Positions 39,343 to 48,131 of a stretch of DNA of 64,000 bases are shown one piece after another; the first letter of the stretch is position 1, and every line of letters begins with the position of its first letter. This DNA is from Escherichia coli (GTDB lineage Bacteria > Pseudomonadota > Gammaproteobacteria > Enterobacterales > Enterobacteriaceae). The stretch lies in assembly GCF_003334255.1 (NCBI RefSeq), contig NZ_QOWU01000019.1, one strand, 5' to 3'. Made by a program: the position numbers and the translations under genes. The notes below the pieces were generated by a model that did no database searches, was not told where the DNA came from, and saw only the letters and a program-made list of their open reading frames with translations.

Positions 39343-39684
39343 ATGCGAATATTTGTCTACGGCAGTTTACGCCACAAACAAGGCAACAGTCACTGGATGA
39401 CCAATGCCCAGTTACTGGGCGATTTCAGTATCGATAACTACCAGTTGTATAGCCTGGGCCACTATCCAGGCGCAGTTCCGGGGAACGGAACAGTACACGG
39501 TGAAGTTTATCGTATTGACAACGCCACGCTGGCCGAACTTGATGCCTTGCGCACCAGGGGCGGTGAATACGCGCGCCAGTTGATTCAGACGCCGTACGGG
39601 AGTGCATGGATGTACGTTTATCAACGACCCGTCGATGGATTAAAGCTAATTGAAAGCGGCGACTGGTTAGACAGGGATAAGTAA
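39343..39684 (+). CDS. ytfP: Gamma-glutamylcyclotransferase-family protein YtfP
   Basis: 113 aa; MRIFVYGSLRHKQGNSHWM. Confidence 0.8.
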   Translation: MRIFVYGSLRHKQGNSHWMTNAQLLGDFSIDNYQLYSLGHYPGAVPGNGTVHGEVYRIDNATLAELDALRTRGGEYARQLIQTPYGSAWMYVYQRPVDGLKLIESGDWLDRDK

Positions 39685-39841
39685 TAATAAAAGCACGCCA
39701 CCTTCGGGTGGCGCGAAAACTGATGTAATGCAATGAAAAATAAAGGATTATTTTTCGAGTTGTCCACATATTGCCATGGCGTTCTAAATTTTTTTGGTGA
39801 GACTATCTCTGCTTGTTGTTTTCACCGCCAGGTTGTTAAAC

Positions 39842-39881
39842 AAAAAAAGCCCACAGTTTTTACGCTGCGGGCTTTGTTTTT
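39842..39881. terminator. Bidirectional rho-independent terminator (ytfP on plus; Hok-like transcript on minus)
   Basis: aaaaaaa-gcccacag-tttttacg-ctgcgggc-tttgttttt: hairpin flanked by A-run and T-run. Confidence 0.65.
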
Positions 39882-39966
39882 CTTTGTGACTTGCGTGTGA
39901 GGGTGCGACTTTCGACCGAACCTTCGGCAACCGGATAGCGGGGGCTTTCACCCCCGCTGCGGTTTC

Positions 39967-40107
39967 TTACTGTTTACACTGCAAGAACGCCGCAAATTCT
40001 GACCACATGATGTTAAGTCTGAACTCACACGGCGAACGGTGTATCATCCAGATGGTCAACAACATGGTTAAGCATAAAATGCTCACGATGATCGTTTTTT
40101 GCGGCAT
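39967..40107 (-). CDS. Candidate Hok/Gef-family type I toxin (46 aa, single TM helix)
   Basis: AAGGAG Shine-Dalgarno 9 nt upstream of ATG; MPQKTIIVSILCLTMLLTIWMIHRSPCEFRLNIMWSEFAAFLQCKQ; resembles recalled Hok motifs (CLT..LL, R-S-x-C-E-F-R, E-F-A-A-F); below the track's 60 aa cutoff. Confidence 0.45.
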   Translation of the reverse strand: MPQKTIIVSILCLTMLLTIWMIHRSPCEFRLNIMWSEFAAFLQCKQ

Positions 40108-40585: not shown

Positions 40586-41731
40586 CTAGCCAGTTGTGGC
40601 GCGCTCTGCTATCCAGTCTGCGATTTTTGCTTCCAGCTCCAGTCTGGTGGTGAAGCCGCTGTCGTCGATGACGTGCTCAATGCGCGAAATAATCCAGTCC
40701 TGATTGTCAATGTCGCTCTTGAACCCGGATACCGTGCCGTGCATCTCTGGATACAGGTCGGCGCGTCCGCGCGCCAGCGTGATGCTGAATTCTGCTGCAC
40801 CCCGCTGAAGTTGCTGCCAGCGTGCGGCAGCTGCGCGACGCGCGGCTTCTTCGTTCGGGTAGGTTTTTCTCAGCACATACACATTGCCTTCTGCGCCTTC
40901 CATGTATCCACCCTCCCGTGAACTGCTTTTCTCCGGCTTCTGTGTGGTTTTCGCGTTTCGCTTTTTCACGTTCACGGCCTTCTTCTGGCCGAACTTTAAA
41001 TCCAGCCAGTAAGCTTTCACTCCGGTATAGGCTTTTCTGTCAGCAATGCGAAAGCGATGACTGTCGCCATCCGAGCGGGTCAGGGCGAATGAGGGGAGGG
41101 CGCGCCCGCTGGCTGTCACACCGCCACCCGGCAGAATGAACAGCAGGCACCCGTTTTTTACGGTGGTTATTGCACCCAGCATGTCAGCCATACGCGTGAG
41201 GAACGAGATGTCGCTTTCCTCTGTCTGGTCTGCATGGTCGATTTCGATATTCATCAGCATTTCGCTGATTTGTGCTTTCAGTCCGTAACGGTGCGCGATG
41301 GCAGATACCACACGCTCAACGGTCACGTCATGCCAGGAGACTTCGCGTTTCACGTTAAACTCTTCGCGAAAATCCGCACTGTTCGCGGATATGGTCAGCT
41401 TATCCGGCGGACCTTCGTGGCTCACTTCGTCCACCACAAACGCCCCCTTGCGAGTGAGGCTTTCACCTTTCCATCCCATCGCCAGCGATAATCGTGTTCC
41501 GCGCTCCGGAAGTACCACCCCGCCGTCGGCGTCGTCGATTTCCAGTGTCACCCTGTCAGCCTCAAAACCCCTGTTGTCTGTCATGGTCAGGCTCATGATG
41601 CGCTGCGTGATGTTCTTCAGGCTGGCATCTTTCCCTTCCAGTGTGATAGTGAAGTCTGGCACCCTAACGGTATCTTCCGCTGCATCCAGTGCGCTGTTGA
41701 TGTGATGTGTTACTGATTCAGTGATGCTCAT
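40586..41731 (-). CDS. D: Tail protein gpD
   Basis: 381 aa; P2 gpD-like length and position next to ogr. Confidence 0.8.
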   Translation of the reverse strand: MSITESVTHHINSALDAAEDTVRVPDFTITLEGKDASLKNITQRIMSLTMTDNRGFEADRVTLEIDDADGGVVLPERGTRLSLAMGWKGESLTRKGAFVVDEVSHEGPPDKLTISANSADFREEFNVKREVSWHDVTVERVVSAIAHRYGLKAQISEMLMNIEIDHADQTEESDISFLTRMADMLGAITTVKNGCLLFILPGGGVTASGRALPSFALTRSDGDSHRFRIADRKAYTGVKAYWLDLKFGQKKAVNVKKRNAKTTQKPEKSSSREGGYMEGAEGNVYVLRKTYPNEEAARRAAAARWQQLQRGAAEFSITLARGRADLYPEMHGTVSGFKSDIDNQDWIISRIEHVIDDSGFTTRLELEAKIADWIAERATTG

Positions 41732-41791
41732 GATATCCCTCCCGTGTGCGTATCATCCCACGCGTACCTTGTCGTTTCTGTCCGGCTCTGT

Positions 41792-41809
41792 TGTAAAAAA
41801 ATCCCCACA
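41792..41809. promoter_or_regulatory. Ogr-box-like dyad TGT-N12-ACA between divergent D and FI genes (candidate late promoter element)
   Basis: tgt-aaaaaaatcccc-aca; centre about 55 nt from plausible start sites on both strands. Confidence 0.45.
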
Positions 41810-41884
41810 GCCCGCATCAGGTGAGGGCTGTGCGCCAATGGTGGATTATTCAGGCGAGCATAAACACAACTGATGGTGAATCGT

Positions 41885-43078
41885 ATGGCTGAAAAACGAT
41901 TTCACGGTGTGCGCGTCACGGAGAATACCGACCTTGTGACGGCCATTAATGACGTTGATTCCAGCGTCATTGGTATTGTTGCCGTTGCAGATGATGCGGA
42001 TACCGGGCAGTTCCCCCTTAACAAGCCAGTGCTGATTACCCGTGTATCTTCTGTTCTGGGGAAGGCCGGGAAAGCGGGCACGCTTTATAAGGCCCTTAAA
42101 GCGATATCTGACCAGGTCAGTACACGGGTGATTGTCGTTCGCGTGGAGGCGGCAAAAGAGGGGGCTGAGAATAAAACACAGGATCAACTGGTCATTGGTA
42201 CCACGGAAGAAGACGGAAGCTACAGCGGTATGCAGGCGCTTCTGGTTGCCGAACAGATGGAAGGTATTGGTTACCGACCCCGCATTCTTGCCGCTCCGGG
42301 CCTTGAATCGGATGCTGTCACGGCTGCACTGGTGACTGTTGCCGGAAAAATGCGCGCATTTGCGTATTCCGGCTGCCCTGGCTGCACAAAACCGTCCGAT
42401 GCTATTGCGTTTCGTAAAAAGATTTCCGGTCGCGAAATCATGCTTCTGTGGCCTGATTTCATTGCGTTCAACCCGGTGTCCGGTAAAAACGAAACCTTCC
42501 CGGCTGCGGCGTATGCGTGCGGTCTTCGTGCCCGACTCGACCATGAACAGGGCTGGCATCGCTCCCTTTCTAACATGCCTGTGAAAAATGTTCTTGGGGT
42601 GCCAGCGTCTGTTTCCTGGTCACTTCAGGATGAAAACAGCGATGCCAACACGCTGAACAACAGCGAGGTGACCACTCTTATTCACCAGGGCGACGGCTCC
42701 TTCCGTTTCTGGGGTAACCGTACGCCGGAAACTGCGGAGTACATCTTTGAGGTGTACACACGTACGGCGCAGCAACTGGCTGACACCATTGCGGAGGCGC
42801 AACTTCAGATAGTGGATTCACCGCTTACGCCTGCCAATGCTAAGGATGCCGTGAGCGCTATCAAGGCAAAGCTGGATGCACTGGTGACAGCCGGAAAACT
42901 CATCGGGGCTGAGTGCTGGTTCGATATCATCGACAACGGCACAACCAGTCTTCGTCAGGGCATTGTGCGTATTCGCTACAAATACACGCCTGTTCCGCCG
43001 ATGGAGTGTATGGAACTCTATCAGACGTTTACCGACGAGTTCTTCAGCTCTGCTTTTGCATCTCTTGGAGGTAGCTAA
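41885..43078 (+). CDS. FI: Tail sheath protein gpFI
   Basis: Recalled P2 FI similarity (NKPVLIT, LWPDF, GWHRSLSN, FRFWGNRT). Confidence 0.9.
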   Translation: MAEKRFHGVRVTENTDLVTAINDVDSSVIGIVAVADDADTGQFPLNKPVLITRVSSVLGKAGKAGTLYKALKAISDQVSTRVIVVRVEAAKEGAENKTQDQLVIGTTEEDGSYSGMQALLVAEQMEGIGYRPRILAAPGLESDAVTAALVTVAGKMRAFAYSGCPGCTKPSDAIAFRKKISGREIMLLWPDFIAFNPVSGKNETFPAAAYACGLRARLDHEQGWHRSLSNMPVKNVLGVPASVSWSLQDENSDANTLNNSEVTTLIHQGDGSFRFWGNRTPETAEYIFEVYTRTAQQLADTIAEAQLQIVDSPLTPANAKDAVSAIKAKLDALVTAGKLIGAECWFDIIDNGTTSLRQGIVRIRYKYTPVPPMECMELYQTFTDEFFSSAFASLGGS

Positions 43079-43590
43079 TGGCCGTACCAAAAAAACTTCG
43101 TGTGTTTACCGTCTTTGTGGACGGTGACAACAAGCTGGGAAAGGTGACGTCTTTTACCCCGCCAAAACTGACCCGTAAAACAGAGTCGTATCGCGGGGCG
43201 GGGATGCCAGGCTCTGCGTCGGTGGATCTCGGTCTTGATGATGGTGCACTGGATCTCTCCTTTGCGGTTGGTGGCGTCGATCGTCACATCTTTGCCAAAT
43301 ACGCCGCCGGTATTGATGCCGTGCGTGTTCGCTTCTCGGGTGAATACTATTCCGAAGAAGGGATTGAGTACGTCGATATTGAAGCCCGTGGTCGCATTGT
43401 CGAAATCGACAAGGGCGAGGCCAAACAGGGTGAAGATACCGAACATACCTATGCGATGAAATGCACCTGGTACAAGCTCAGCGTTGATAACAGCGATGTT
43501 ATTGAAATCGACGTGCTGAACTTCATCTGGCGCATTGATGGTAAGGATGTTCTTCCTGACCGCACCCGCTCCATGCTGGGGCTTGGCTGA
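43078..43590 (+). CDS. FII: Tail tube protein gpFII
   Basis: 170 aa; MAVPKKLRVFTVFVDGDNKLGKVTSFTPPKL; ATGA overlap with FI. Confidence 0.9.
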   Translation: MAVPKKLRVFTVFVDGDNKLGKVTSFTPPKLTRKTESYRGAGMPGSASVDLGLDDGALDLSFAVGGVDRHIFAKYAAGIDAVRVRFSGEYYSEEGIEYVDIEARGRIVEIDKGEAKQGEDTEHTYAMKCTWYKLSVDNSDVIEIDVLNFIWRIDGKDVLPDRTRSMLGLG

Positions 43591-43641
43591 TAGTTAAATC
43601 TGATAACAGGGGCGGCGTCCTGTTGCCCCGGGAGAAAAATA

Positions 43642-44022
43642 ATGGATCAGACTGAAGAAAATATCGTGACGAATGACACAGATGCTGTGACGAATGGCGA
43701 CACGGAAAACGCAGAGGCGATCGCAAATGACACGGTTAATCTCAGGGTTCCTGTTGTCTGCGGTAATAAGACGGTTTCCAGCGTGAAGATTGGGGCGCTT
43801 GCGCGTCAGGTGGGCTCGCTTCGAGGGATCCGCATGACGGACCTGTTCAACACCGATGTTGATGCTGCCGCCATTTTTCTGGAACGCGTAACTGAACCTC
43901 ACCTCAGCCGCGCGGCACTTATGTCAATGTGCCCGGAAGACTTCTTTAAACTGTACGAGGTGGCAGTCGGTTTTTTGCTTCCCTCGTCAGCGAAGAAGGC
44001 GCAGGAGGCGGGCGGCGCGTAA
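43642..44022 (+). CDS. E: Tail assembly chaperone gpE (E' extension by -1 frameshift to about 44177)
   Basis: 126 aa; P2 gpE-like C-terminal half; slippery site near the 3' end. Confidence 0.8.
   Translation: MDQTEENIVTNDTDAVTNGDTENAEAIANDTVNLRVPVVCGNKTVSSVKIGALARQVGSLRGIRMTDLFNTDVDAAAIFLERVTEPHLSRAALMSMCPEDFFKLYEVAVGFLLPSSAKKAQEAGGA
43971..43977 (+). other. Programmed -1 ribosomal frameshift slippery heptamer T_TTT_TTG (gpE to gpE+E')
   Basis: In E frame GGT TTT TTG; the -1 frame stays open for about 65 codons to a TAA at 44175-44177 overlapping the T start. Confidence 0.65.
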
Positions 44023-44169
44023 CGCTTCTTGCTTTTGATTACGTTGAAGATATTGTCGCTGATATAGCCGTTGTATTTCACTGGTCGCCCTCTGAAATCT
44101 TTGTGATGACTCCCGGTGAACTGGTTGCCTGGCGAGAACGGGCGGCCGTCAGAACCGGGAATCATAACG

Positions 44170-47001
44170 ATGAGTAATAATCTCCAGATACGTGTAGCCC
44201 TTACTGCGGTCGACCGTCTCACTCAACCCGTCAGGCGCGCCCGGGAAATGACCGGCGCGCTTTCTGAATCTCTTTCCTCCACGCAGAACGCTCTTAAGTC
44301 ACTCCAGCGAAGCAGTGATGCGTTTTCCCGTGCCCGCCAGCAGGTGACCTCGACTGAAAACAGCCTGAACGAGGCGCGTGCGCGACTTCAGCGCCTCCAG
44401 GAGGCCCAGCGTACTGGCACGACACTAACGGAAAAACAGCAGGAAGCTATCCGCTCGCTGACTGCGAAGATTGATCGCCTTAATACGGTTTATTCCCTCC
44501 ACAAATCCCGACTTAGCGAAGCCGGTCGCGAACTGGAAGCCCACGGCATACGGGCTGACGGAAGTAACCGCGCTGTGGAGGAAGCAATCAGGCGAACGCA
44601 GGAATACAACGATCAGCTTGAGCGCCAGCAGGCTCAGCTTGCACGCGTCACGCAGGCGCAGCAACGCTATGACCGTGTTAAGGATATTGCCGGTAAGCTC
44701 AGTCAGCGCGGTGCTGTTGCCATGGCGGCTGGCAGTGCCGGTCTGTATGCTGCCGGTCGCGCGGTTGCACCAGTTGTTGAAGAGCAACGGCAGGGGGCGC
44801 TCATTGCGGCACAGAGTGGCGGCAGCGCAGAAGACGGCCAGCGCTACAGCCGTATGATTCAGAGCATCCGTGCGTCAGGTGCGGCCACGGATATCGCGAT
44901 GATTTCGGAAGCAGCAGCTGCGGCGCAAAGCACGCTTGGCGCACTGGGTACCGTAGGGACTGAAGAACTGGAAAGGGTGACACGGCAGGCAATCGATCTT
45001 GCTCAGGTCACCGGCGGTAATGTGGCTGAACAGGTTCAGGCTGCTGGCATTATGCTGAAAAACGGGCTTGCCGCAAATGCAGGTGAGGCCGTCGACCTGA
45101 TGGCGGCAGGGATGCAGAAAATGTCTGCCGAAATGCGCGGCGAACTTCCTGAAATTCTGCATGAGTATTCCACGCATTTCCGCAATATGGGGCTATCCGG
45201 CTCTGAAACCATGACGCTGCTTGTCAGCATGGCGCAGCAGGGGAAATTCGCCCTGGATAAAACCGGCGATGCTGTCAAAGAATTCAGTATTCGCGGCTCG
45301 GATATGTCCAAATCCAGCGTTGAAGCCTATGAGCTGATTGGCCTTAACGCTGAAAGAATGTCGTCAGCGATCGCCAGTGGCGGCGCGGCCGCGCGTGAAG
45401 CGATGCGTCGCACCGCGTCAGGTCTGTTACAGATTCAGGATCCTGCAGAAAGGGCCAATGCGGCGATAGCGCTGTTCGGCACACCCATTGAAGATCTGGC
45501 TGTTGACCAGATCCCGGATTTTCTCCGGTCGCTTGCAACGGTATCTGACCGTATGGGGCTGGTTCAGGGAACCGCCCGGCGAATGGGGGATGTTCTGCGT
45601 GACAACCTCGGCGGCGACACCGATCGTCTGTCCGGCATTTTCTCCGGTATTCGCAGTGATGTTGTGTCGCTGGTTACTGATGATATCCGCGAGCTTGTAC
45701 AGGCTGTTGCTTCTGTGGGTGAACGCTTCAGGTCGTGGGTTCAGGAAAACCCGCAGCTTGTACGCACGCTGACTCTTACCGTGGGTGGCGTGCTTGCGGC
45801 CACAACGGCCATTGGTGCGTTGTCTGTCGGAGGTGGGTTACTGACGGGGATTTTTGCAAAACTTCAGCTTGGCTCTGCGCTTCTTGGTGGCGGGCTATCC
45901 TCGCTTACAAACGGTGTTGGTGGTCTTGCTCTTCGCCTGTCCGGCCTTCCGGCACTGTGGGGGATGGTCTCCGGTGCGGTTTCTGTGCTGGGCGGGGTGC
46001 TTTCCGGTCTTCTCAGTCCTGTTGGTCTCGTGATTGCTGCTCTTGCCGGTGGGGCGCTGCTCATATGGCGTCACTGGGAACAGGTTAAGGCGTTCATGCT
46101 CGGCACATTCCGGTCGCTGTGGGCTGGCCTTGCGCCTGTTCGTGAAAGTATTGCTCAGTTTGCGCCGTTGTTTGATCTGGTGTCGGGTGCGGTGTCCACG
46201 GTGTTTGACTGGTTTACCCGGTTACTCACGCCTGTTCAGGCCAGCAACGAATCTCTTGAACGGTGTACGTCTGCGGGAGAAAGCTTCGGTCGTGTACTTA
46301 GTGGGGCGATATCGCTTGCGCTTACGCCGCTGAAGGCGCTGATGGATGGACTTGCCTGGGTACTGGAAAAGCTTGGCGTGCTGCCTGATGAAGCTGAAAG
46401 GGCGCGCCGGAAACTGGAGGATGCACAGCGGGCTTCGCTTCTTCAGGGCAAGCTCTCCCTGCTTCAGGGGGATGTTAATGCCATTATCTCGCCCGCTAAG
46501 CCAGTTGATGGCAATGATAAAGGTAATAATGGTGGCAAGCCTTCTGTCATAAACGACGGCACCAGTGGCGTTCTTCGCAGGCTCAAAGGTATCGAGGGTA
46601 ATACGTCGGGTATGCTTCAGGAAGCCCGCAAGCGTATCGGTCCTGGCGATATCGTGTTTAAAAATCTCCCCCGTGCGCTGGCTGTTCGCGGGCAGTGGAA
46701 TGAACCGACTGTTGCACCCGGGCTTCCGCTTATGCCAGCGTTTTCGCCTGTGTCTCCGGCGGTTTCCCCGGATTCTTCCCGTCCTGTGGAGGTTAAGCGG
46801 TGGGATCCGGTGTCCCCGACACCCCGGGAGCCTTCGCGCTCTCCTGAACCGCCGCCTGTGTACGGTGGTGATATTCATGTTCACCTTCACAACGTGGTTA
46901 CGCAGAACCCTCGCGACCTTGCCAGAATGGTGGGGGAGGCGGTACGGGAAGAAATTCGCAGACAATCCGGCGGTATGAACAGTTTCCGCGATCGTGATTA
47001 G
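44170..47001 (+). CDS. T: Tail tape measure protein gpT
   Basis: Start MSNNLQIRVALT; coiled-coil N-terminal region, Gly/Ala-rich hydrophobic middle, Pro-rich C-terminus. Confidence 0.85.
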   Translation: MSNNLQIRVALTAVDRLTQPVRRAREMTGALSESLSSTQNALKSLQRSSDAFSRARQQVTSTENSLNEARARLQRLQEAQRTGTTLTEKQQEAIRSLTAKIDRLNTVYSLHKSRLSEAGRELEAHGIRADGSNRAVEEAIRRTQEYNDQLERQQAQLARVTQAQQRYDRVKDIAGKLSQRGAVAMAAGSAGLYAAGRAVAPVVEEQRQGALIAAQSGGSAEDGQRYSRMIQSIRASGAATDIAMISEAAAAAQSTLGALGTVGTEELERVTRQAIDLAQVTGGNVAEQVQAAGIMLKNGLAANAGEAVDLMAAGMQKMSAEMRGELPEILHEYSTHFRNMGLSGSETMTLLVSMAQQGKFALDKTGDAVKEFSIRGSDMSKSSVEAYELIGLNAERMSSAIASGGAAAREAMRRTASGLLQIQDPAERANAAIALFGTPIEDLAVDQIPDFLRSLATVSDRMGLVQGTARRMGDVLRDNLGGDTDRLSGIFSGIRSDVVSLVTDDIRELVQAVASVGERFRSWVQENPQLVRTLTLTVGGVLAATTAIGALSVGGGLLTGIFAKLQLGSALLGGGLSSLTNGVGGLALRLSGLPALWGMVSGAVSVLGGVLSGLLSPVGLVIAALAGGALLIWRHWEQVKAFMLGTFRSLWAGLAPVRESIAQFAPLFDLVSGAVSTVFDWFTRLLTPVQASNESLERCTSAGESFGRVLSGAISLALTPLKALMDGLAWVLEKLGVLPDEAERARRKLEDAQRASLLQGKLSLLQGDVNAIISPAKPVDGNDKGNNGGKPSVINDGTSGVLRRLKGIEGNTSGMLQEARKRIGPGDIVFKNLPRALAVRGQWNEPTVAPGLPLMPAFSPVSPAVSPDSSRPVEVKRWDPVSPTPREPSRSPEPPPVYGGDIHVHLHNVVTQNPRDLARMVGEAVREEIRRQSGGMNSFRDRD

Positions 47002-47003
47002 GA

Positions 47004-47477
47004 GTGATGGTTATGATGATGATTTACGGCATGTTTGTTTTTCAGTTAAGCACACTGCCACACCAACAAATACAACAGTCCCGTAACTGGAGGCATGTAA
47101 AGAACGAGCGAATCAACCGCTCAGCCAGCTGGCAGTATATCGGCGCGGGTGACGATACCATCACGCTTTCGGGTTTGCTCTACCCGGAAATTACGGGCGG
47201 TGAAGTCTCCCTGACCGCACTGACCAGCCAGGCTTACGTCGGGCGACCATGGCCGCTGATTGATGGGGTAGGGCAGATTTACGGGATGTATGTCATTACC
47301 GGGCTTAACACCACCCGCTCTGAACTTGATCGCTATGGTCGGGCAAGAAAGATTGAGTTTACTGTCACTTTTGAGCGTGTGGATGAAGATCTGCGTGAAC
47401 GTCTTCAGTCCTCGTCGCTTGGTGATCTTGCGAATAACGTTAAAGGTGCCCTGAATAATCTGTCCATTCCGGTTTAA
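47004..47477 (+). CDS. U: Tail protein gpU
   Basis: 157 aa; follows T as in the P2 FETUD operon. Confidence 0.8.
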   Translation: MMVMMMIYGMFVFQLSTLPHQQIQQSRNWRHVKNERINRSASWQYIGAGDDTITLSGLLYPEITGGEVSLTALTSQAYVGRPWPLIDGVGQIYGMYVITGLNTTRSELDRYGRARKIEFTVTFERVDEDLRERLQSSSLGDLANNVKGALNNLSIPV

Positions 47478-47483
47478 ATAATA

Positions 47484-47508
47484 ACGCCCTGGTGTCAGGG
47501 CGTTTTTG
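47484..47508 (+). terminator. Rho-independent terminator after U (convergent with G)
   Basis: acgccctg-gtgt-cagggcgt followed by ttttt. Confidence 0.65.
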
Positions 47509-47512
47509 CTGT

Positions 47513-48121
47513 TCATCTTTCGGTGGCGGGTTCTTCCTGTGTGGGCCAGCCCACAACGTAACGCTGAATGGCCTCCGCATCCTGAAGTTCTGCAATCTCT
47601 TTTTTCATGTTGCGCTGGCGCACATGAATTTCCATTCCCTTCGCGAACATTGCCTGTTGCGCGGCTTCACTCAGCGCAATCAGTTCTTCCGCAGTCATGG
47701 GGACGTCGTTGTTGTCTGCGTCTGTCCAGAAAAACTTCTCCGGGAGATTGCCTTCTTTTGCTGCGATAACTGATGGGCCAAGGCGATCCTGTGTTTCCTT
47801 TCCATAATCCCAGTTACGGCCATTAAAGCTGAAAATATAACTGGCTGATTCCATTCTGTTCCGCCAGGCGTTGATCCCGGCGGTTTTGAGTTCTCTGGCT
47901 TTTTCCGGGCTGATGGATGGCTGTACATATTCTGCAATTTCACCGGCCTCTCCTCTCAGACAAGCGGCATAAATATCCCGCCCGTATGCTTCGGTATCGC
48001 TGGCTGTTGCAGTGAAAGGAACCGCCTGCTCAATGTGCTCAAACTTCACCATGCAATTGACAGCAGTGTGCTCTTTATCTGCCCATTGCGGATTGCTTAT
48101 TTTTTCCACATTCATGTTCAT
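47513..48121 (-). CDS. G: Tail fiber assembly protein gpG-like
   Basis: Likely start MNVEKISNPQW just after the H stop; position equivalent to P2 G; sequence match weaker than for other genes. Confidence 0.6.
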   Translation of the reverse strand: MNMNVEKISNPQWADKEHTAVNCMVKFEHIEQAVPFTATASDTEAYGRDIYAACLRGEAGEIAEYVQPSISPEKARELKTAGINAWRNRMESASYIFSFNGRNWDYGKETQDRLGPSVIAAKEGNLPEKFFWTDADNNDVPMTAEELIALSEAAQQAMFAKGMEIHVRQRNMKKEIAELQDAEAIQRYVVGWPTQEEPATER

Positions 48122-48131
48122 CTCCTGTCTG

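Follow-up and report, generated by a model that had tools for sequence, protein, structure and literature searches.

The stretch of Escherichia coli DNA analysed here, 64,000 nucleotides of contig NZ_QOWU01000019.1 in assembly GCF_003334255.1 (hereafter the window), includes part of a P88-like, P2-family prophage with the tail assembly chaperone gene E, a slippery heptamer, T_TTT_TTG, within that gene, and an open −1 frame, E′, that runs into the start of the tape measure gene T. Gene E is preceded by GGGAG at 43630-43634, which resembles a ribosome binding site, and its 0-frame stop codon occupies 44020-44022. Positions 43969-43977 read GGT TTT TTG (G-F-L) in the frame of E, so that the heptamer sits in the X_XXY_YYZ register. 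A TAA at 43947-43949 closes the −1 frame upstream and the next stop is the TAA at 44175-44177; the open stretch between them shares 73 nt with gene E, and the E′ portion that would be read after a shift spans 43977-44174, or 66 codons. At the far end, the ATG of T (44170) and the TAA of E′ overlap within ATGAGTAA (44170-44177), and RefSeq starts T at the equivalent of this ATG in a genome that is 100% identical. Another possible slip site, TTTAAAC at 43945-43951, was rejected because it is out of register and includes the −1-frame TAA.

A preliminary description of this DNA had placed the heptamer at 43971-43977 and the end of the −1 frame at a TAA (44175-44177) overlapping the start of T. Both placements proved exact on direct reading and on translation of the −1 frame, with the heptamer in frame in the 126-codon open reading frame (ORF). 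The same description had named an early −1-frame stop after the site as the observation that would refute an intact frameshift; we looked for one in the translation and found none before 44175-44177.

Features of the E/E′ locus and of the adjoining tail genes, with positions in the window
Feature	Position	Strand	Basis or remark
Gene E, 0 frame, 126-aa tail assembly chaperone	43642..44022	+	ORF list, translation, phrog_103, weak PF10109
Slippery heptamer T_TTT_TTG	43971..43977	+	read directly in the sequence
−1-frame open stretch, 75 codons plus TAA	43950..44177	+	translation
Conceptual E+E′ coding sequence, join(43642..43977, 43977..44177), 178 aa	43642..44177	+	conceptual fusion
GAGGTG resembling a Shine-Dalgarno (SD) sequence, candidate stimulator	43957..43962	+	8 nt upstream of the heptamer
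Tape measure gene T, 943 aa	44170..47001	+	phrog_28 7.5e-119, TIGR01760, RefSeq start
Tail tube gene FII, 170 aa, directly upstream of E	43078..43590	+	TIGR01611 1.2e-32, above curated cutoff
Tail sheath gene FI	41873..43078	+	phrog_23 3.7e-113
Tail gene U	47004..47477	+	phrog_76 4.4e-70
Gene D (late control D / tail protein), divergent from FI	40586..41731	-	phrog_52 1.7e-153; P88/Chuche layout
Bidirectional terminator-like hairpin	47483..47504	.	consensus match, 9-bp GC-rich stem on both strands

Both halves of the conceptual fusion have counterparts in P2, the 0-frame product being homologous to gpE and the −1-frame extension to E′. Among the PHROGs families, phrog_103 matches the 0-frame part (1.5e-23) and phrog_1756 matches residues 114-178 of the fusion (7.6e-27), while the Pfam family PF06528, “Phage P2 GpE”, covers residues 139-174 (6.5e-14). 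Aligned by BLASTP with P2 E+E′, as derived from the P2 record, the 178-aa fusion shows 36% identity (E 4e-29), and the alignment is colinear straight across the ...VGFL... junction. Gene E also lies, as in P2, between the tube gene FII (TIGR01611) and T (TIGR01760, phrog_28). The P2-family E/E′ arrangement proposed in the preliminary description is thus borne out by phrog_103, PF06528, phrog_1756 and the same-register TTTTTTG of P2 itself. An AlphaFold2 model of the 178-aa E+E′ reached a mean predicted local distance difference test (pLDDT) score of 80.9 and a predicted template modelling (pTM) score of 0.72; solved folds of tail assembly chaperones include those of HK97 (2ob9) and YqbN (3klu). 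Residues 1-27 of E (43642-43725) have no counterpart in P2 E; this N-terminal extension is acidic, of low complexity and predicted to be disordered (pLDDT < 50). Its length differs among close relatives, L009 having six extra codons.

Relatives were drawn from the protein database, from viral contigs (the best 80 of 572 relatives, pulled with an alignment of fusions) and from phage and E. coli collections; a scan of representative genome contigs with the single fusion protein found none. In a tblastn search against 50,697 phage records, the fusion matched 399, of which 131 had at least 80% query coverage. Among the 60 matches listed, nearly all of those with at least 80% coverage consisted of two joined pieces, as expected when the reading frame changes at the same point. 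We retrieved 25 loci, comprising close relatives (84-100% DNA identity, several of them from E. coli) and distant ones (P2, 186, and phages of Klebsiella, Salmonella, Yersinia, Citrobacter, Mannheimia, Burkholderia and Ralstonia). In 20 of the 24 sequences first analysed (23 loci plus the window), P2 and 186 among them, TTTTTTG occupies the same register, in the codon context G/S/N/D-F-L. The four exceptions are L010, Klebsiella Kp4845-1 (C_CCT_TTC), Shae_phiSM (A_AAT_TTT, 3 nt upstream) and Mannheimia PHL101 (G_GGA_AAG); in each of them the heptamer keeps the register and the GpE domain follows. L025, another relative from E. coli, has T_TTT_TTC. The locus L010, from Logan contig ERR4561010, carries frame-breaking indels in sheath, E and T, with an indel upstream of the site, and still keeps TTTTTTG; either the assembly is of low quality or the copy is decaying.

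A motif-anchored script was run over all sequences, which came from 105 loci and of which 96 were distinct. Every one of the 96 has an in-frame X_XXY_YYZ heptamer inside the E/E′ overlap, 93 found by the script and three by hand; the three misses were procedural (L018 and L020, in which TTTTTTG had already been seen, and L010, because of its indel). Across the relatives the heptamer takes the forms TTTTTTG, CCCTTTC, AAATTTT, TTTTTTC, TTTTTTA and GGGAAAG, and among the distinct sequences C_CCT_TTC occurs in 14, A_AAT_TTT alone in 14, T_TTT_TTC in two and G_GGA_AAG in one. Replacement heptamers stand at the same site and in register in L014 (position 728), L015 (734), L021 (782), L025 (1494) and L090; C_CCT_TTC is found in the Klebsiella group and A_AAT_TTT in some P88-like phages, and T_TTT_TTA is also seen. 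A slippery heptamer that keeps its position although its own sequence varies fits the prediction of tandem tRNA slippage and argues against coincidence and against a requirement for a homopolymer run. Some of the public records already describe the event: the annotation of phage 186 reads “probably produced by a translational frameshift”, and the KS14 and Carl1 records, which share the in-frame TTTTTTG, contain joined E+E′ coding sequences (CDSs).

Selection on the −1 frame was assessed by comparing the window with four distinct close relatives (84–92% DNA identity) over the stretch that belongs to E′ only, 44023-44174. The variable sites fall on −1-frame codon positions 1/2/3 in the proportion 3/1/12, with a binomial P of 8e-4 for at least 12 of 16 at position 3. 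Nei-Gojobori counts, pooled against the window, give 20 synonymous and 6 nonsynonymous differences in the −1 (E′) frame, as against 4 and 20 in the frame of E and 2 and 23 in the +1 frame. In this set of few and phylogenetically non-independent relatives, the −1 frame is thus under purifying selection at the protein level. Omega values against the close relatives are 0.03-0.07 for the tube, 0.22-0.43 for E before the site, at most 0.2 for E′ and 0.06-0.11 for T.

We conclude, with a probability of roughly 0.93, that gene E of this P88-like, P2-family prophage holds a programmed −1 ribosomal frameshift in which tandem slippage on T_TTT_TTG would give E and a minority of E+E′. Most ribosomes would pass GGT TTT TTG unshifted and end at 44020-44022, producing the 126-aa E. 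A minority would slip back by one base with tRNA-Phe and tRNA-Leu on TTT TTG, both of which can re-pair with TTT TTT, resume at GCT 43977 in the −1 frame and end at the TAA at 44175-44177, producing the 178-aa E+E′. Tandem slippage after decoding of TTG predicts the tryptic junction peptide LYEVAVGFLASLVSEEGAGGGR, whereas a slip in the P site only predicts LYEVAVGFFASLVSEEGAGGGR. If the pair works like P2 E/E+E′ and lambda G/GT, the E part common to both proteins would bind the tape measure protein T and the E′ part would recruit the tail tube protein, neither E nor E+E′ would end in the virion, and a fixed slip frequency would set the E : E+E′ ratio.

The same fusion could be made by ordinary translation if RNA polymerase stuttered on the T6 run and added one U to some transcripts. 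The six T of the site form a homopolymeric run, one added base gives the same protein, and runs of T6 or longer are present in most relatives (e.g., CC-TTTTTTG). However, 31 of the 96 distinct sequences were counted as using only heptamers without a run of six, and CCCTTTC, AAATTTT and GGGAAAG obey the two-tRNA re-pairing rule while being poor substrates for polymerase stuttering. Efficient transcriptional slippage in bacteria, moreover, usually needs runs of about 8-9 or more. For P2, PMC3091744 and PMC5009743 describe the event as translational. Polymerase stuttering is therefore very unlikely to be the source of E+E′. A product of the −1 frame without any recoding, i.e., a separate small protein with its own start, is what RefSeq and several phage records imply: the identical genome is annotated with a 126-aa ‘phage tail assembly protein’ and a 23-aa ‘hypothetical protein’ (44106-44177; 5529-5600 in L024), ‘GpE family’ CDSs of relatives are called at 41-51 aa, and P88 and Chuche have separate E′ CDSs. 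In the clade of the window, however, the −1 ORF lacks ATG, GTG and TTG until 23-24 codons before its stop, downstream of the start of the conserved ADIA..F.W domain, which lies 39 codons before the stop. With no start ahead of it, the domain is reachable only from E, and E′ resembles the P2 type in having no start codon of its own before the conserved domain. The 41-aa CDSs are given a non-canonical start, ATT (the equivalent of 44052 in the window), selection on the −1 frame reaches upstream of any start, and the in-frame slippery heptamer is kept in every relative, all of which make an independently started E′ highly improbable.

Site and open frame might also persist unused in a decaying prophage, or by coincidence, since the window holds only part of the prophage and the lineage is rare, with its block found at 99% identity or more in 14 of 5,426 complete E. 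coli genomes. Against this stand the structural genes in the window, which are all full length, the low omega of tube and T (0.03-0.11) and of E′, and the occurrence of an identical tail block beside different host genes in different strains (serS versus ytfP), so that we consider a relic to have next to no probability. Other points weigh against the frameshift itself. A heptamer with an open −1 frame is weak evidence taken alone and recurs by chance in the window: its ATG-initiated ORFs of at least 100 aa contain, on both strands, 53 in-register X_XXY_YYZ heptamers (Y = A or T), eight of which precede 60 or more open −1 codons (most of these eight in spurious antisense ORFs), and at 5.4% of −1 positions within long ORFs the frame stays open over 68 codons or more. 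Because the bare pattern is this common, the case rests on the domain content of the −1 frame, on conservation and on the substitution pattern, and the substitution counts, which are small and pooled over few non-independent relatives, support the case without proving it. For the 0-frame half, Pfam gives a weak match (PF10109, “Phage tail assembly chaperone proteins, E, or 41 or 14”, residues 31-112 of the fusion, E 0.0018), a search of the fusion against NCBIfam gave no match, and RefSeq annotates neither the frameshift nor its 178-aa product in identical prophages. Finally, slippage in this prophage is something we infer from its sequence.

The programmed frameshift proposed here has its closest described counterpart in P2. 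PMC3091744 and PMC3931495 give an E of 91 aa, an E+E′ of 142 aa and an overlap of 37 nt, all of which the in-frame TTTTTTG in the P2 record reproduces. In P2, according to PMC3931495, PMC5009743 and PMC3091744, two polypeptides that share an N-terminus are made in a fixed ratio, and tail assembly requires both. In PMC5009743, the E part of P2 and lambda is described as binding the tape measure and E′ as recruiting the tube protein, with both absent from virions, and P2-type slip efficiency as 2-3 times the ∼1:30 of lambda; the efficiency and binding partners in the present prophage would follow by analogy from this literature. Our locus shares with P2 the identical T_TTT_TTG, its codon register and G-F-L context, the position of E between FII and T, the homology of both halves, an E′ without a usable start, the overlap of the E′ stop with the T start in the same ATGAGTAA motif, and the lack of a downstream RNA structure. 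It differs in a longer E (126 aa versus 91 aa) owing to the ∼27-residue acidic, predicted-disordered extension, in a longer E+E′ (178 aa versus 142 aa), whose Gly-rich linker following the shift site is also longer, in an overlap of 73 nt instead of 37 nt, in an operon on the strand opposite to the baseplate and fibre genes, and in the separation of D from the operon. P2 genes E and E+E′ and the FETUD operon were reportedly described by Christie et al. in 2002, whose work PMC3931495 and PMC3091744 summarise.

The P88-like phages (Xuanwuvirus: P88, Chuche, Shae_phiSM) have the same gene order as the prophage, D(−), then FI FII E E′ T U(+), then fibre genes(−), an E of about 121-126 aa and a fusion of about 176-178 aa, and hok/gef and ogr beside D. 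They are about 68% identical in DNA and about 40% identical in protein to the E/E′ studied here and, unlike the clade of the window, have no upstream SD-like element; P88 carries A_AAT_TTT_TTG, two overlapping heptamers, of which Shae_phiSM keeps only A_AAT_TTT. The lambda tail assembly chaperones G and GT are said to have been described by Levin et al. in 1993 and by Xu et al. in 2004, 2013 and 2014 (reviewed in PMC5009743). The lambda heptamer, G_GGA_AAG, is the one used by the relative Mannheimia PHL101.

Stimulatory elements were sought on both sides of the heptamer. Downstream, the 100 nt that begin at the heptamer show no better folding than shuffled sequences (z 0.14), the only local hairpin begins ∼24 nt past the site and has two pairs broken by synonymous changes in L009, and an Rfam search of 43400-44400 returned nothing even at E up to 1; a downstream stimulatory structure was therefore rejected. 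Its absence agrees with reports that such a structure is lacking in P2 and Burkholderia phages (PMC3091744). Upstream, the duplex of GAGGTG with the anti-SD sequence has an energy of −10.4 kcal/mol, a value that ranks among the top 0.7% of background windows. P2, 186 and the phages of Burkholderia and Ralstonia have similar SD-like elements, which the P88 group and the large CC-TTTTTTG group lack. The mean anti-SD energy was −7.4 versus −3.0 kcal/mol for the first 19 loci (P 4e-8), and among 55 distinct upstream sequences 37% of TTTTTTG sites reached −6 kcal/mol or lower versus 16% of the background. Since whole sub-lineages lack the element, we demoted it from a family-wide stimulator to a lineage-specific lead. 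In E. coli dnaX, −1 frameshifting takes place on A_AAA_AAG, which has an SD-like element before it and a hairpin after it. The E/E′ site shares with dnaX a tandem-slippage heptamer and, in the clade of the window, an SD-like GAGGTG 8 nt upstream, but the dnaX combination of a conserved SD-like element and a downstream stem-loop is not found: there is no downstream hairpin, and the SD-like element is not conserved across the E/E′ family. The frameshift product is, moreover, longer than the 0-frame product and not shorter as in dnaX.

In most of the related loci the stop of E′ either overlaps the start of T or lies directly against it, with the ATGAGTAA of the window also present in P2 and in 186, and the SD sequence ahead of T is weak, at background level across the loci. 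This configuration is compatible with translational coupling, through which T may be expressed. That the frameshift of this clade involves more than a bare heptamer, with GAGGTG raising the slip as in dnaX and T translated mainly by coupling to the termination of frameshifted ribosomes, seems to us rather unlikely; neither SD-stimulated slippage nor coupling of T is established for P2-family phages in the literature surveyed.

The window covers the E. coli chromosome from cpdB through cysQ, ytfJ, paeA, msrA, tamA, tamB and ytfP, and the prophage begins just past ytfP. The large ORFs to the left of the prophage were considered as defence or cargo genes and rejected as such, as they are the host genes tamA, tamB, msrA, paeA and ytfP. 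The prophage starts with hok/gef (39967-40107), ogr and D on the minus strand and continues with FI, FII, E, E′, T and U on the plus strand; beyond U follow a hairpin, then fibre, baseplate, tail-completion, lysis and head genes on the minus strand, and terminase and portal genes on the plus strand up to the window end. The hairpin at 47483-47504, where the FI-U operon meets the convergent fibre operon, is likely a bidirectional terminator. Between tube and E, an 8-bp GC-rich hairpin without a U tract (43609-43629; z −1.4, not significant) occupies the position at which phage 186 has an annotated partial terminator (tI). A 656-aa ORF at 53769-55739 on the minus strand, between the lysis genes and the tail-completion gene R, matches only phrog_143, of unknown function (3e-297), and had no PADLOC or NCBIfam match.

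Within 40586-49814, the FI-U block is flanked on both sides by genes of the opposite strand, D at one end and the fibre and baseplate genes at the other. P88 and Chuche have exactly this layout, indicating that the orientation is a lineage trait and not a local inversion or lesion. P88 is a mitomycin-inducible, plaque-forming myovirus with a contractile tail of ∼137-140 nm (PMC5285337). The preliminary description had taken the intact frameshift site as an argument that an inverted tail module is functional. The idea of a rearrangement does not hold, as this is the standard Xuanwuvirus order, and the intact site alone is weak evidence; the module itself does look competent, for which the full-length neighbouring genes and purifying selection on tube, E, E′ and T among close relatives (omega 0.03-0.43) are better support. 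In strain SW070917 a 100% identical tail block adjoins serS and not ytfP (L024 1-1534), whereas in the window the prophage end with hok/gef and ogr abuts ytfP and tamB (39343-40107). An identical block with different host neighbours is consistent with recent mobility. SW070917 and another E. coli strain, G1/2, carry the block at 99.9-100% identity.

The E/E′ frameshift belongs to a feature that is already known, a textbook recoding site, of which this is one more instance in the little-studied P88-like sub-lineage. The opposite orientation of FI-U is the normal P88-like architecture and not damage, so that the tail module looks competent. If T is coupled to frameshifted ribosomes, this would hard-wire the stoichiometry of E+E′ to T. 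The practical consequence is a correction of the annotation: the 23-aa RefSeq ORF is meaningless, and a proteomic or functional reading based on RefSeq would miss a 178-aa protein that the P2 literature treats as required.

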